Below, in pieces: positions 1,419 to 5,142 of a stretch of DNA of 5,142 bases (position 1 is its first letter; each line of letters begins with the position of its first letter). The DNA comes from a virus (taxonomy: Duplodnaviria > Heunggongvirae > Uroviricota > Caudoviricetes): the IMG/VR virus record IMGVR_UViG_2693429584_000012; one strand, written 5' to 3'. Under the pieces are notes generated by a model. It searched no databases. It was not told the origin of the DNA and was given only the letters and a program-made list of their open reading frames with translations. The position numbers and the translations under genes were made by a program.

Positions 1419-2080
1419 ATATCTACGAAAGAATTGATGGCAGCAAATACCGAAATATTTGGGTAGTTGGCGATCTGCACGGATGCTACACGAACCTGAT
1501 GAAAAAACTGGAGACGATAGGATTCGACACCAAAAAAGACCTGCTTATCTCGGTGGGCGATTTGGTTGATCGCGGTACAGAGAACGTAGAATGCCTGGAA
1601 TTAATCACATTCCCCTGGTTCAGAGCTGTACGTGGAAACCATGAGCAAATGATGATTGATGGCTTATCAGAGCGTGGAAACGTCAATCACTGGCTGCTTA
1701 ATGGCGGTGGCTGGTTCTTTAATCTCGATTACGACAAAGAAATTCTGGCTAAAGCTCTTGCCCATAAAGCAGATGAACTTCCGTTAATCATCGAACTGGT
1801 GAGTAAAGGAAAAAAATATGTCATCTGCCACGCCGATTATCCTTGTGATAAATACGAGTTTGGAAAGCCAGTTGATCATCAGCAGGTAATCTGGAACCGC
1901 GAACGAATCAGCAACTCACAAGACGGGATCGTGAAAGAAATCAAAGGCGCGGACACGTTCATCTTTGGTCATACGCCAGCAGTGAAACCACTCAAATTTG
2001 CCAACCAGATGTATATCGATACTGGCGCAGTGTTCTGCGGAAACCTCACATTGATTCAGGTACAGGGAGAAGGCGCATGA
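1415..2080 (+). CDS. ninI: Serine/threonine protein phosphatase (lambda PPase, Orf221 family; calcineurin-like metallophosphatase)
   Basis: 221-aa [35 protein letters not shown]...GDLVDRG...GNHE..., carrying the GDxHG / GDxxDRG / GNHE metallophosphatase motifs and near-identical to lambda protein phosphatase as recalled. Its ATG overlaps the ninG stop (ATGA). Confidence 0.95.
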
Positions 2081-2700
2081 GACTCGAAAGCGTAGCTAAA
2101 TTTCATTCGCCAAAAAGCCCGATGATGAGCGACTCACCACGGGCTACGGCTTCTGACTCTCTTTCTGGTACTGATGTGATGGCTGCTATGGGGATGGCGC
2201 AATCACAAGCCGGATTCGGAATGGCTGCATTCTGCGGTAAGCATGAACTCAGCCAGAACGACAAACAAAAGGCTATCAACTATCTGATGCAATTTGCACA
2301 CAAGGTATCGGGGAAATACCGTGGTGTGGCAAAGCTCGAAGGAAATACTAAGGCAAAGGTACTGCAAGTGCTCGCAACATTCGCTTATGCGGATTATTGC
2401 CGTAGTGCCGCTACGCCGGGCGCAAGATGCAGAGATTGCCACGGTACAGGCCGTGCGGTTGATATAGCCAAAACAGAGCAGTGGGGGATAGTTGCTGAGA
2501 AAGAGTGCGGAAGATGTAAAGGCGTCGGTTATTCAAGAATGCCAGCAAGCGCCGCATATCGCGCTGTGACGATGCTAATCCCAAACCTTACCCAACCCAC
2601 CTGGTCACGCACTGTTAAGCCGCTGTATGACGCTCTGGTTGTGCAATGCCACAAGGAAGAGTCAATCGCAGACAACATTTTGAATGCGATCACACGTTAG
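2077..2700 (+). CDS. Q: Late gene antiterminator Q (lambda Q family)
   Basis: 207-aa [67 protein letters not shown]... with a CRDCHGTG...CGRCKGVG zinc-binding motif, essentially lambda Q as recalled. Its ATG overlaps the phosphatase stop (ATGA). Confidence 0.95.
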
Positions 2701-2742
2701 CGCCATGATTGCCACGGATGGCAACATATTAACGGCATAATA

Positions 2743-2790
2743 TTGACTTTTTGAATAACTTTGGGGAAACTTGACACCAATAATGGGCGT
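2743..2790 (+). promoter_or_regulatory. Late promoter pR' with overlapping qut (Q-utilisation) site
   Basis: About 40 bp after the Q stop: TTGACT (2743..2748), a 17-bp spacer TTTTGAATAACTTTGGG, then GAAACT (2766..2771). This aligns position by position with lambda pR' (TTGACT-TATTGAATAAAATTGGG-TAAATT) as recalled. It is followed by TGACACCAATAATGGG, containing a -10-like AATAAT in the position of the lambda sigma70 pause-inducing element. Confidence 0.6.
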
Positions 2791-2912
2791 TTTTTACATG
2801 TCATTGATGAGTCTCAATAACCTGCCGCCGAGTAGTTTTTATGCTCTGAATTGTATTTGTGTAGTAAACATGCTGACTGCAATGTAATAGAGTTTTTTTA
2901 GCCTGTAACCTC

Positions 2913-2962
2913 TTGACGGCATTGAATTGCTTTTGTTATGAGTTGTAAGCCAATGTTATCAT
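2913..2962 (+). promoter_or_regulatory. Candidate sigma70 promoter(s) of the cargo membrane-protein gene
   Basis: Option 1: TTGACG (2913..2918) with an extended -10 TGtTATGAG (2934..2942). Option 2: TTGTTA (2933..2938) with an extended -10 TGtTATCAT (2954..2962). Either would start transcription just upstream of the GGGGTGG Shine-Dalgarno and the ATG at 2980. Predicted by eye only. Confidence 0.35.
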
Positions 2963-2979
2963 CTTGTATTGGGGTGGTT

Positions 2980-3696
2980 ATGAAGGATGGTGCGCTGCTC
3001 AGGAGTTCTTCACTTTTTATTGCCTACATGGGATGCCTTGGATGGGGGAGTGCTTATTTCTATGGATGGGGTACTTCTTTTTACTACGGCTTCCCATGGT
3101 GGATTGTAGGTGCAGGTGTTGATGATGTTGCCAGAAGTTTATTTTTTGCAGTTATCGTCATTGCTATATTTCTTATCGGTTGGGGTATTGGTGTTGTATT
3201 CTTTTTCGCAGTGAAAAGAAAACATTCTATGCAAGAGCTAAATGTATTTCGCCTTTATTTTGCTGTGGAATTATTGTTTGTGCCGGCAATTATTGAGTTT
3301 TCTATATTGAGACAGAAGATTCAGGTACCTCTTTTGCTACTGTCAGCAGCGATTGCGCTGGCGGTTACAATTTCGATAAGATCTTATGGGCGATTTTTAT
3401 CGGTATCATGCTTCTATGATAAGCCATTTATAAAAAAACATTTTTTTGAGATTGTGATGATTGCTTTTGTGGCATATTTCTGGCTTTTTTCATTTCTGAC
3501 AGGATATTACAAACCACAGTTTAAGAAAGAATATGAAATGATTAATTATAATGATGGTTGGTATTATGTTCTTGCTCGTTATGATAATTGTCTGGTTTTG
3601 TCTACTTCTTTCAATGCAGGTAGTAAAAGGTTTGTCATTTATCAATCAGCACAAGATAAGAATCTTCAGGTTGATATTGTAAGGACCAGAATTTAA
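2980..3696 (+). CDS. Hypothetical polytopic inner-membrane protein (cargo/moron gene; about 4-5 predicted transmembrane segments plus a ~65-residue C-terminal soluble domain); function unknown
   Basis: Long ORF in frame 1 ending TAA 3694..3696. The preferred start is ATG 2980, preceded by GGGGTGG 3 nt upstream; the longest-ORF start is ATG 2938, which has no RBS and lies inside the predicted promoter. Hydrophobic stretches include SLFFAVIVIAIFLIGWGIGVVFFFAV, LYFAVELLFVPAIIEFSIL, VPLLLLSAAIALAVTISI and FFEIVMIAFVAYFWLFSFLTGYY. The gene is strongly AT-rich compared with the flanking phage genes. I recognise no homolog. Confidence 0.7.
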   Translation: MKDGALLRSSSLFIAYMGCLGWGSAYFYGWGTSFYYGFPWWIVGAGVDDVARSLFFAVIVIAIFLIGWGIGVVFFFAVKRKHSMQELNVFRLYFAVELLFVPAIIEFSILRQKIQVPLLLLSAAIALAVTISIRSYGRFLSVSCFYDKPFIKKHFFEIVMIAFVAYFWLFSFLTGYYKPQFKKEYEMINYNDGWYYVLARYDNCLVLSTSFNAGSKRFVIYQSAQDKNLQVDIVRTRI

Positions 3697-3829
3697 TTGG
3701 CTGCATAAATAATATTTTAAGTTGCAAGTTGGCTATTCGTAGGAATAGAACCTTAGGCATGCTGAATGCGTTTTCTGAACATTGTTTTATAAACTGTGTC
3801 TGCTTGCTGTTGTGATCCTGCTTTTAGTG

Positions 3830-3940
3830 ATGGTGATGATGGATTTCACCAGCAGGATAATGTTGGTACTGACTGATGGCGCTCTGGTCTGCGGCATTGT
3901 GGTATTGCTGTGGCCGATGATGAAAGAACAGAATGAATAA
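3830..3940 (+). CDS. Candidate small hydrophobic (single-TM) peptide, 26-36 aa depending on start; speculative
   Basis: Frame 2 ORF MVMMDFTSRIMLVLTDGALVCGIVVLLWPMMKEQNE ending TAA 3938..3940. Alternative starts are ATG 3836, 3839 or 3860. It has a hydrophobic core with a charged C-terminal tail. No convincing Shine-Dalgarno; it could be a chance ORF or a gene remnant. Confidence 0.2.
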   Translation: MVMMDFTSRIMLVLTDGALVCGIVVLLWPMMKEQNE

Positions 3941-3943
3941 TTC

Positions 3944-3972
3944 TTGACTTTTTTGTTTACTGTTTATTAAAA
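3944..3972 (+). promoter_or_regulatory. Promoter-like element sharing the ATAAT..TTGACTTTTT core with pR'
   Basis: TTGACT at 3944..3949 followed by a T-rich spacer and TATTAA/TTAAAA -10-like hexamers at 3965..3972. The -35 side resembles the pR' -35 region at 2737..2753. Weak -10; speculative. Confidence 0.25.
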
Positions 3973-4126
3973 AATCAACCGCATGGTGAATCCTCCTTGG
4001 AGGGGCTAAATGATCGAGTTTTAAGGGCACGTAGCGAGTTCTGTTTGATCATTGCAGAACTTAGCGGGAGGCGCCATGCGTACATCACTAATGTTATTTC
4101 CTTCTATCATTTTCCTTGTGAGTTCT

Positions 4127-4153
4127 GGCTGCGCATGGCGCGGCCTTTTTTTT
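4127..4153 (+). terminator. Rho-independent (intrinsic) terminator
   Basis: GGCTGCGC (4127..4134), loop ATG, GCGCGGCC (4138..4145) forms an 8-bp GC-rich stem with one U-G wobble, followed immediately by TTTTTTTT (4146..4153). It lies 87 nt upstream of the nanS-p start. Confidence 0.65.
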
Positions 4154-4239
4154 ATGACCTGCCACTGGCAGATGGTCATCCTGTGATTTGATTCCGCTTC
4201 CGGCTTTTTAACTCTGTTCCTCTACACGGGAGAAATTCG

Positions 4240-5142
4240 ATGTCGATTAAACATTACGATGTTGTCAGGGCGGCGTCGCCGTCAGACCTTGCGGAAAAGC
4301 TGACACACAAACTGAAAGAGGGCTGGCAGCCATACGGCGGATCGGTTGCCATTACGCCGTACACACTGATGCAGGCGGTGGCTATTGAAGGAGAGCCACA
4401 GGTCGGCCCTTCATCTGAGCCGGATTGGTACTACGTCATCGTACTGGCCGGGCAGTCCAATGCCATGGCTTACGGTGAAGGGCTTCCGCTGCCGGATTCA
4501 TACGATGCTCCGGATCCGCGCATTAAACAGCTGGCGCGCCGCAGTACAGTGACGCCGGGCGGGGCTGCCTGCAGATATAACGATATTATTCCGGCTGACC
4601 ACTGTCTGCATGATGTGCAGGATATGAGTACGCTGAATCATCCGAGGGCTGACCTGAGCAAAGGGCAGTACGGCTGTGTCGGCCAGGGTTTACATATTGC
4701 CAAAAAACTGCTCCCGTATATCCCGAATAACGCGGGGATCCTGCTGGTACCATGCTGTCGTGGTGGTTCGGCATTTACCCAGGGCGCGGAGGGGACATTC
4801 AGCGAGTCCACGGGGGCCAGTCAGGATTCGGCACGCTGGGGGGTGGGCAAGCCGTTATATCAGGATCTGATTTCCCGCACAAAAGCGGCATTGCAGAAAA
4901 ATCCCAAAAACGTTCTGCTGGCCGTCTGCTGGATGCAGGGTGAGTTTGACATGAGCGCCGCCACCCACGTACAGCAACCTGCGCTGTTTACAGCCATGCT
5001 GACACAGTTTCGTGCTGACCTCTCCGTGTTTAACGCGCAGTACCATGGTGGCAGTGCTGCAGATGTGCCGTGGGTTTGTGGTGACACGACGTATTACTGG
5101 AAAAATACATACGCTACCCAGTACGACACCGTGTACGGCGGG
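4240..5142 (+). CDS. nanS: Prophage-encoded sialate O-acetylesterase (NanS-p type; DUF1737-like N-terminal domain plus SASA/SGNH esterase domain), 5' partial; continues past window end
   Basis: ATG 4240 preceded by GGGAG at 4228..4232. Frame 1 is open for 301 codons to the window edge: MSIKHYDVVRAASPSDLAEKLTHKLKEGWQPYGGSVAITPYTLMQAVAIEGE...DWYYVIVLAGQSNAMAYGEG..., with the GQSN catalytic-serine block typical of SASA-family esterases. Missing from the ORF track only because there is no stop inside the window. Confidence 0.8.
   Translation, partial: MSIKHYDVVRAASPSDLAEKLTHKLKEGWQPYGGSVAITPYTLMQAVAIEGEPQVGPSSEPDWYYVIVLAGQSNAMAYGEGLPLPDSYDAPDPRIKQLARRSTVTPGGAACRYNDIIPADHCLHDVQDMSTLNHPRADLSKGQYGCVGQGLHIAKKLLPYIPNNAGILLVPCCRGGSAFTQGAEGTFSESTGASQDSARWGVGKPLYQDLISRTKAALQKNPKNVLLAVCWMQGEFDMSAATHVQQPALFTAMLTQFRADLSVFNAQYHGGSAADVPWVCGDTTYYWKNTYATQYDTVYGG

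Follow-up and report, generated by a model that had tools for sequence, protein, structure and literature searches.

A PasD small RNA and two membrane-protein genes form an accessory cassette in the stx slot of a lambdoid phage

Introduction

What does a lambdoid phage carry in the position of the Shiga toxin (stx) genes when it has no stx? The question is raised by a 5,142-nt stretch of tailed-phage DNA (IMG/VR record IMGVR_UViG_2693429584_000012; "the window" hereafter means this whole stretch), in which an AT-rich block at 2700-4239 lies between the late antiterminator gene Q with its promoter pR' and the sialate O-acetylesterase gene nanS-p. An initial annotation, made from the sequence alone, treated the block as cargo that it could not recognise and that might have a toxin, exclusion or defence role. 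Here we compared the block with phages, bacterial genomes and published transcript data. The block is a known, widespread three-part accessory cassette consisting of two membrane-protein genes and the gene for the small RNA (sRNA) PasD. We consider it highly probable that it is the lysogenic-conversion ("moron") cassette of phages 434 and 2B8 and of prophages PP2 and PP4 of enteropathogenic Escherichia coli (EPEC) E2348/69, that it sits in the tRNA-stx slot, and that it works in the way proposed below.

Results

Distribution and boundaries of the cassette

Sequence comparison recovered the cargo in phage 434 and EPEC E2348/69 and in a sizeable fraction of E. coli genomes, and it is therefore not new. 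Identity was 98.8% to phage 2B8 over 2700-4239 and 99.0% to phage 434 (OL657226) over 2836-4239. At a coverage of at least 80%, the cassette was present in 682 of 5426 complete E. coli genomes (12.6%), mostly at an identity of at least 99%, and many of these were O157:H7. Human and bovine E. coli isolates have lambda-like prophages to which the whole window was approximately 99.2% identical; the one such prophage examined adjoins ompT/envY. EPEC prophages PP2 and PP4 showed the same cassette gene order. CPT_434_68/69/70 of phage 434 correspond to E2348C_0686-0687-pasD2 in PP2 and to E2348C_1012-pasD1 in PP4, with the three elements in the same order and spacing and at 99-100% nucleotide identity. 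The cassette lies directly 5' of nanS-p in PP2 and phage 434 and directly 5' of the holin gene in PP4.

Of 102 phage records with similarity to some part of the interval, in most cases the pR' segment, only 3 contained the cassette. Besides 434 and 2B8, no sequenced phage of the collection, Stx phages included, had a gene of the TfpB family to which the large cassette protein belongs. A lambda-type Q/pR' precedes the cassette in the window, 2B8 and EPEC PP4, and a Q82-type Q, itself preceded by lpxR and ylcG, does so in phage 434 and EPEC PP2. Since two unrelated Q/pR' types are each joined to it, the cassette moves as a unit. The window differs from its relatives in joining a lambda-type Q/pR' and a PasD1 allele, as in PP4, to a nanS-p right flank, as in PP2 and 434. 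Phage HK97, which has the same Q/pR' type, has no cassette, and its Q/pR' runs directly into holin. Together with the layout of Stx phage 933W, these comparisons bear out the initial view of the interval as variable accessory cargo.

The compositional break that had been judged by eye proved real. In 200-nt windows, guanine plus cytosine (G+C) content was 0.295-0.445 in 2700-4100, approximately 0.44-0.55 upstream and 0.53-0.60 downstream. A maximum-likelihood two-breakpoint fit placed the breaks at 2725 and 4265, with a G+C of 0.491 to the left, 0.384 within the block and 0.572 to the right. On a coarser grid, the fit raised the log-likelihood by 43.6, whereas 200 shuffled sequences gave a rise of 4.9 on average and 10.7 at most. 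The earlier estimate of roughly a third G+C was slightly too low for the block as a whole (38%) and fits the large membrane-protein gene (36.3%). Third-codon-position G+C (GC3) differed within the cassette: it was 0.305 in the TfpB-family gene (2980-3696) and 0.585 in the DUF3927 gene (3782-3940). This contrast suggests that the two protein genes had separate origins, although they now travel together, and that the cassette is itself a mosaic.

Homology to phage 434 starts at 2836, and homology to the nanS-p loci of Stx phages restarts only at 4227-4247, at the start of nanS-p. By these alignments the cassette proper would span about 2836-4226, with its left edge between 2788 and 2836. The left junction and 5' leader of the cassette (2788-2979, plus strand) were delimited by the match to phage 434, and the spacer with the nanS-p 5' leader (4154-4239, plus strand) by the Stx-phage alignment, in which nanS-p homology begins at approximately 4227. 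The insert as first drawn does cover the AT-rich cargo, but its 2700-4239 span also takes in the conserved pR'/qut segment at 2704-2787, which is phage backbone. The contents listed for it were otherwise accurate. No tRNA gene was found in the window by ARAGORN, and no stx-like open reading frame (ORF) or Pfam match by the ORF list and Pfam scan; the large membrane gene (ORFs 2938/2980-3696), the small hydrophobic gene (3782-3940) and the terminator (4127-4153) are all there.

The stx slot

Phage 933W has the order Q, pR', three tRNA genes, stx2AB, STnc100, AsxR (opposite strand), nanS-p and S/R. STnc100 (207.7 bits) begins 75 nt after stx2B, and it abuts AsxR (88.1 bits) between stx2B and nanS-p (comparison locus L020, 3600-3859). 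Papers on Shiga toxin-producing E. coli likewise place STnc100/EcOnc27 downstream of stx2B. Comparison with this layout confirmed that the block occupies the stx-equivalent slot between Q/pR' and nanS-p. The slot, the promoter blocks, the terminal sRNA gene and the 5' domain of that sRNA are shared between the two phages; the protein cargo is not, with an AB5 toxin and tRNAs in 933W and two unrelated membrane proteins in the cassette. No AsxR or AgvB match was found in the window. The slot thus consists of a protein cargo that can be swapped and, after it and just 5' of nanS-p, an sRNA gene that is conserved but diverging.

A similar arrangement was seen in a prophage with a 933W-like late region in GCA_946062955.1 (L010, 3711-7839). 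It carries two tRNAs, STnc100 (80.9 bits), a 68% TfpB paralogue, lpxR on the minus strand and nanS-p, together with a weak AgvB-like match on the minus strand and no stx. In this prophage the TfpB gene lies downstream of the sRNA gene, not upstream.

PasD small RNA

The third element of the cassette is the PasD sRNA gene. The 173 nt at 3981-4153 (plus strand) are identical at 173 of 173 positions to PasD1 of E2348/69 (NC_011601, 1060260-1060432), and in an alignment with both EPEC loci the window had the PasD1 state at all five sites that vary between PasD1 and PasD2. Coordinates, seed and probe were taken from Table S6 and Fig. S5 of PMC8550237 (Pearl Mizrahi et al. 2021), where PasD1 is mapped to the coordinates given above and PasD2 to NC_011601 741157-741328, between E2348C_0687 and the esterase gene. 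Both RNAs were validated there by Northern blot and are Hfq-dependent, and EcOnc13 is the homologue in enterohemorrhagic E. coli (PMC8550237). The complement of the published Northern probe matched exactly at 4114-4137, and the published seed UGUGAG was located at 4117-4122 (plus strand). The gene ends at 4127-4153 (plus strand) in an intrinsic terminator with an 8-bp stem, seven of whose pairs are G-C, followed by T8, which forms an Hfq-type 3' end. The initial annotation was right that the interval holds a terminator and missed that this terminator is the 3' end of a published sRNA gene. A putative promoter lies at 3944-3973 (plus strand), with a -35 element TTGACT at 3944-3949, an 18-nt spacer and a -10 element TAAAAA at 3968-3973, 7 nt 5' of the published end. 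The predicted fold had a free energy of -56.9 kcal/mol (z -2.07).

PasD is related to the sRNA of the Stx phages. The Rfam STnc100 model (RF02076) aligned over its full length (1-206/206) to 3951-4156 with 37.7 bits (E 1e-5). The gathering score is 47, and PasD is therefore a diverged relative rather than a member of RF02076. PasD and the 933W STnc100 have in common upstream TTG.C and TTAAAAAA blocks, a 5' hairpin GCAUGGUGAAUCC..GGAGGGGC and a CGGGAGGC element; the 3' seed and the terminator differ. Judged from these alignments, PasD is a diverged homologue of STnc100/EcOnc27 in the same position of the slot. A 2026 preprint states that PasD and STnc100 derived from a common ancestor, in agreement with our alignment.

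Public records place proteins on this segment (likewise in comparison loci L001 4662-4850, L017 3698-3939 and L018 4301-4699), on 3997-4191 of the plus strand (CPT_434_70, "putative membrane protein") and on 4021-4179 of the minus strand (RefSeq opposite-strand hypotheticals or pseudogenes). We therefore examined the reading that 3997-4190 is a gene for a small membrane protein or lipoprotein, either CPT_434_70 or a 36-aa ORF from ATG 4076, and not an sRNA gene. Phage 434 annotates a product of 62 aa here, and ATG 4076 has a Shine-Dalgarno-like GGGAGG 4 nt upstream and a signal-peptide-like start, MRTSLMLFPSIIFLVSSGC. However, a 1-nt indel between PasD1 and PasD2 breaks both plus-strand frames: the 36-aa ORF shrinks to 14 aa both in PP2 and in phage 434, and of the 64-aa frame the C-terminal half is wholly altered between the alleles. 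The plus-strand protein annotations are therefore probably spurious and the gene non-coding. The ORFs also extend beyond the mapped 3' end and terminator at 4153 and so cannot be translated from the abundant 173-nt transcript; GGGAGG belongs to the conserved structural elements of the STnc100 family; and there was no significant match in PHROGs, Pfam or NCBIfam (best E 0.057, far under the model cutoff). A protein in place of PasD is very improbable. The small lipoprotein ORF at 4076-4186 was dropped as a candidate, as its frame is not kept between alleles.

Expression of the cassette

Published expression data for the identical cassette in uninduced EPEC (DESeq2 baseMean, activating condition; PMC8550237 Table S2) showed that the cassette is active in the lysogen. 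For PP2 the values were 69 for Q, 226 for the TfpB-family gene, 37 for the DUF3927 gene, 11017 for pasD2, 102 for nanS-p, 3.5 for holin and 3.2 for lysozyme. For PP4, which has no nanS-p, they were 6 for Q, 147 for the TfpB-family gene, 8652 for pasD1, 5.4 for holin and 3.9 for lysozyme (PMC8550237). These data show a transcribed cassette next to silent lysis genes, and hence expression in the lysogen that does not depend on the lysis genes.

The same values bear on a possible role in lysis. As late-lysis accessories (holin, antiholin or lysis timing factors), the membrane proteins would be expressed only from Q-antiterminated pR' transcripts. Their position in the late operon 5' of holin and endolysin, their small or polytopic membrane character and the lack of a strong terminator from pR' up to the genes in this context fit such a role. 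In uninduced EPEC, however, they were transcribed at 40-70 times the level of the holin and lysozyme genes beside them. These genes are missing from related phages that share the Q/pR', homologues are found on chromosomes and plasmids far from lysis genes, and phage 434 is already annotated with a full set of pinholin, signal-anchor-release (SAR) endolysin and spanin. A lysis function is accordingly most unlikely.

We propose instead that the two protein genes would be transcribed from a promoter inside the cassette. A candidate lies at 2913-2942 (plus strand), with TTGACG at 2913-2918, an 18-nt spacer and a TG-extended TATGAG at 2937-2942. An internal promoter is favoured because expression in PP2 is similar despite a different pR', and because a terminator is annotated just 5' of the cassette in phage 434. 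The phage 434 record also annotates a CII-binding site just 5' of the TfpB-family gene; the equivalent in the window, 2933-2946 (TTGTTATGAGTTGT), fits TTGYN6TTGY as a pattern match.

PasD would be transcribed from its own TTGACT-N18-TAAAAA promoter and end at the only strong terminator of the interval. No convincing intrinsic terminator equivalent to tR' was found between pR' and the first cassette gene (2788-2979), and the first strong terminator downstream of the lambda-type pR' is that of PasD at 4127-4153. The PasD terminator could thus also serve this phage type as its tR'. In 933W, the stx cargo is expected to be read through by Q-modified RNA polymerase on induction. By analogy, Q-modified polymerase that starts from pR' after induction would run on past the PasD terminator and transcribe nanS-p and the lysis genes as well.

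PasD is very abundant and Hfq-bound in EPEC, and RIL-seq, in which interacting RNAs are ligated and sequenced, found it ligated to many mRNAs with CUCACA motifs complementary to the UGUGAG seed (PMC8550237). Chimeras were reported with cesF, tir, bfpB, perB, uspA and aceE, and for PasD2 also with the prophage lpxR mRNA (E2348C_0684), at a CUCACA-type site, CUCACAAG (PMC8550237). The mRNA of the large cassette gene was recovered in chimeras as well. A site at 3112-3142 (plus strand) inside the TfpB-family mRNA exactly matches the motif context published for E2348C_0686 in chimeras with another sRNA, PasA, from the EPEC RIL-seq data. The PasA gene lies downstream of nanS-p on the opposite strand, which suggests cross-talk between cargo elements of one prophage.

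TfpB/STM1630-family membrane protein

The large gene (2980-3696, plus strand) encodes an inner-membrane protein of 238 aa that belongs to the TfpB/STM1630 family (PF27470). In-frame ATGs are also present upstream at 2938, which gives a 252-aa ORF, and at 2953. In most homologues the start corresponds to residue M15 of the 252-aa ORF, that is, ATG 2980, and by this alignment the two upstream ATGs are probably not used. A 100% identical protein (P0001) and all homologues at E ≤0.001 carry a precomputed match to PF27470, named TfpB. The NCBI Prokaryotic Genome Annotation Pipeline (PGAP) names WP_001299184.1 "STM1630 family protein", and the ORF matched phrog_1521, whose PHROG function is unknown. 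It had no match in NCBIfam or in the Pfam release that predates PF27470.

The TfpB family is small: an exhaustive hidden Markov model search of 1.84 billion representatives found only 72 clusters. Its members come from host-associated Proteobacteria (Enterobacterales, Neisseria, Avibacterium, Gallibacterium, Pasteurella and Actinobacillus), and the distant named representatives from Neisseria and Pasteurellaceae are all called "hypothetical protein" or "transmembrane protein". An initial AlphaFold2 (AF2) model built on close homologues was of low quality (pLDDT 62), and a model from a more diverse alignment was used instead (pLDDT 79.8, pTM 0.73). It shows five long helices and, at the C-terminus, a beta domain of five strands and approximately 55 aa; five transmembrane (TM) helices are predicted. 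The topology would be N-in with the beta domain in the periplasm. Conservation is strongest in an aromatic and glycine-rich TM1/loop, AYFYGWGxSFYYGFPWW..DDVARSL, which, at the predicted periplasmic face, would be the most conserved surface of the protein. Across the wide family alignment there was no invariant polar catalytic residue. No remote relative was found in a Pfam scan of 27 family members or in a PDB sequence search with the family profile, and no fold relative of the model in the PDB or the viral structure set.

The genes that surround TfpB-family members were compared across bacteria. Salmonella Typhimurium STM1630 is 46% identical over the full 238 aa, has the same architecture, and is likewise an AT-rich islet gene beside a virulence gene, sseJ, from which it is divergent. 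It differs from the cassette gene in being chromosomal and outside a prophage late operon, with no DUF3927 partner and no STnc100/PasD match nearby. STM1630 has been listed among genes co-regulated with Salmonella pathogenicity island 2 (SPI-2) and was picked for study from intra-macrophage RNA-seq. On plasmids of enterotoxigenic E. coli (ETEC), a 59% homologue is divergent from the heat-labile enterotoxin genes eltAB (Enterotoxin_a/b) at a distance of approximately 870 bp, with the STb gene approximately 3 kb off (L005-L008, 3987-6714). The tie of the family to toxin loci thus reaches beyond the stx slot. A 57% homologue was found on 106 Shigella plasmids, including virulence plasmid pWR100 (L025, 6001-6717), amid insertion sequence elements; the S. 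dysenteriae 1617 record names the Shigella plasmid homologue "TfpB protein". Another 57% homologue lies in an iroBC/bor island with STnc100 downstream. In Avibacterium and Neisseria the homologue is a single gene between housekeeping genes, which suggests that the protein acts alone.

We considered whether the TfpB-family protein, with or without the DUF3927 protein, could act in superinfection exclusion, abortive infection or colicin tolerance, blocking DNA entry or collapsing the membrane as SieA/SieB, Imm and RexB do. The gene is in a moron position, AT-rich and expressed in the lysogen. It encodes a polytopic membrane protein in which no catalytic polar residue is conserved. Its homologues stand as lone single-gene islets or are carried by plasmids and prophages, as is typical of immunity and exclusion genes, and the accompanying DUF3927 protein bears the label "TciB-like ... 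resistance to colicin". On the other hand, none of the four cassette ORFs matched a PADLOC-DB 2.0 model (0 families at E up to 1), and there was no sequence or fold likeness to known exclusion proteins. Many family members are chromosomal, beside virulence genes and, in Salmonella, co-regulated with virulence, and DUF3927 is missing from most TfpB contexts. The toxin, exclusion or defence role that had been suggested for the cargo proteins thus found no support, and we regard exclusion as unlikely.

A second possibility was raised by lpxR, which encodes a lipid A deacylase. The TfpB-family protein could belong to an outer-membrane or lipid A remodelling module with LpxR and PasD/STnc100, perhaps as a membrane partner, a regulator or a substrate-presenting factor. 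Four independent arrangements place lpxR near TfpB genes: in phage 434 and EPEC PP2; in C. rodentium, where it adjoins a 66% homologue divergently; and, convergently, in Stx-like prophages with a 68% paralogue (Q, methylase, tRNAs, STnc100, TfpB, lpxR on the minus strand, nanS-p), one of which also has pmrD between lpxR and nanS-p. The PasD2-lpxR chimeras, a preprint that names Q and LpxR as conserved neighbours of PasD, and the conserved aromatic belt at the predicted periplasmic membrane interface are consistent with such a module. However, the window and its closest genomic relative are both free of lpxR for approximately 9 kb to each side of the matched region, and EPEC PP4 has none in the 6 kb examined. 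Nor does lpxR adjoin STM1630 or the copies of the ETEC plasmid, the Shigella plasmid, Avibacterium and Neisseria. Neighbourhood in mosaic prophage regions is weak evidence, and no enzymatic motif is conserved. A lipid A module is quite unlikely. As a required partner of the cassette, lpxR was dropped as a general rule, since the window-type context is without it.

A stand-alone accessory role in the envelope is the reading that we favour over exclusion, a lipid A module or lysis. Under this reading the TfpB-family protein would be a lone, envelope-embedded accessory factor that is useful to host-associated bacteria, with no lysis, structural or enzymatic role in the phage.

DUF3927 protein

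The small gene (3782-3940, plus strand; TTG start according to PGAP) encodes a 52-aa protein with two hydrophobic segments. Residues 7-50 matched PF13064 (DUF3927) with 53 bits against a cutoff of 25, and the protein matched phrog_1470, "TciB-like" (E 2.5e-17); genome and phage 434 records call it "DUF3927 family protein" or "TciB". The TciB label is a putative annotation derived from the tci genes of phage P1. The likeness to P1 tciABC consists in a PHROG family named after P1 TciB; there is no TerB-like TciA in the cassette, and the P1 Tci functions are themselves putative. No experiments behind the TciB name (colicin or tellurite resistance, cell-division inhibition) were found in the literature. 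Most other TfpB contexts lack DUF3927, and the two proteins are therefore not obligate partners. Neither has a sequence or fold relative of known function, and a literature search found no functional study of TfpB, PF27470, TciB, DUF3927, EcOnc13, or phage 434 with lpxR.

Flanking genes

The flanks are lambdoid backbone, and Q, pR' and nanS-p stand in the order first described. Q (2077-2700, plus strand) is a lambda-type late antiterminator (PF03589 Antiterm, 192.5 bits), named antitermination protein in the records of 2B8 and E. coli genomes. The late promoter pR' with its qut site (2704-2787, plus strand) has a -35 element TTGACT at 2744-2749, and the segment is 90-92% identical to promoter/qut segments annotated in HK97, HK022, mEp234, HK106 and approximately 100 other lambdoid phages. 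The 5' part of nanS-p (4240-5142, plus strand) begins at ATG 4240 and continues past the window end; it encodes DUF1737 (PF08410, 53.9 bits) and SASA (PF03629, 49.9 bits) domains, and the product is called "SASA family carbohydrate esterase" in the records of phage 434, 2B8 and EPEC.

Upstream of Q, a ninB-like ORF (to 459) runs directly into ninE (approximately 456-638), as in lambda. In the closest genomic relatives, ninB and ninE are separated by a gene for a phage N-6-adenine methyltransferase, which explains approximately 520 extra bases (L027 8900-10210, compared with 240-805 in the window).

Discussion

The cassette shares with the classical lambda morons bor and lom its accessory nature, its place inside the late operon, its distinct composition and, probably, its autonomous expression; it has no homology to Bor or Lom. 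Several points weigh against the working that we propose for it. The internal promoter receives no support from a consensus scan, which found 3 sites where 4.4 were expected; the promoter-like signals described in the initial annotation were thus no more frequent than chance, and the support for expression comes from the published data. Since pR' is followed by no strong terminator until that of PasD, a constitutive pR' could explain the mRNA in the lambda-Q context. The expression values were obtained for EPEC prophages rather than for the element studied here. That Q-modified polymerase reads through the PasD terminator is an assumption carried over from lambda and Stx phages, and the evidence for regulation by PasD consists of RNA-RNA ligation. 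The roles of both proteins are inferred; the predicted topology of the TfpB-family protein draws on the distribution of charges and a moderately confident AF2 model; and deletion of STM1630 left intramacrophage replication unchanged.

The cargo in this slot was, in effect, already known. Phage 434 dates from the 1950s, and its cassette is found in approximately one in eight complete E. coli genomes, O157:H7 and EPEC included. Of its products, a regulatory RNA is the most abundant; this RNA contacts transcripts of LEE (the enterocyte effacement locus), bfp and lpxR in published RIL-seq data. The position of the sRNA gene 5' of nanS-p is conserved between Stx (STnc100/EcOnc27) and non-Stx (PasD) prophages, and the protein cargo is swapped.

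The remaining interest lies in the TfpB/STM1630 protein, which is widespread in enteric pathogens and has an orphan fold. One speculative possibility, to which we give little weight, is that it is an envelope factor specific to host-associated Proteobacteria that has repeatedly been recruited beside virulence genes (in stx-slot prophages, at sseJ and eltAB, on Shigella plasmids and with lpxR/pmrD), and that in prophages, with the STnc100/PasD sRNAs and with LpxR where present, it would remodel the outer membrane or protect the lysogen. If this is true, the TfpB family would be a new kind of membrane protein, since its fold has no relative among the structures searched.

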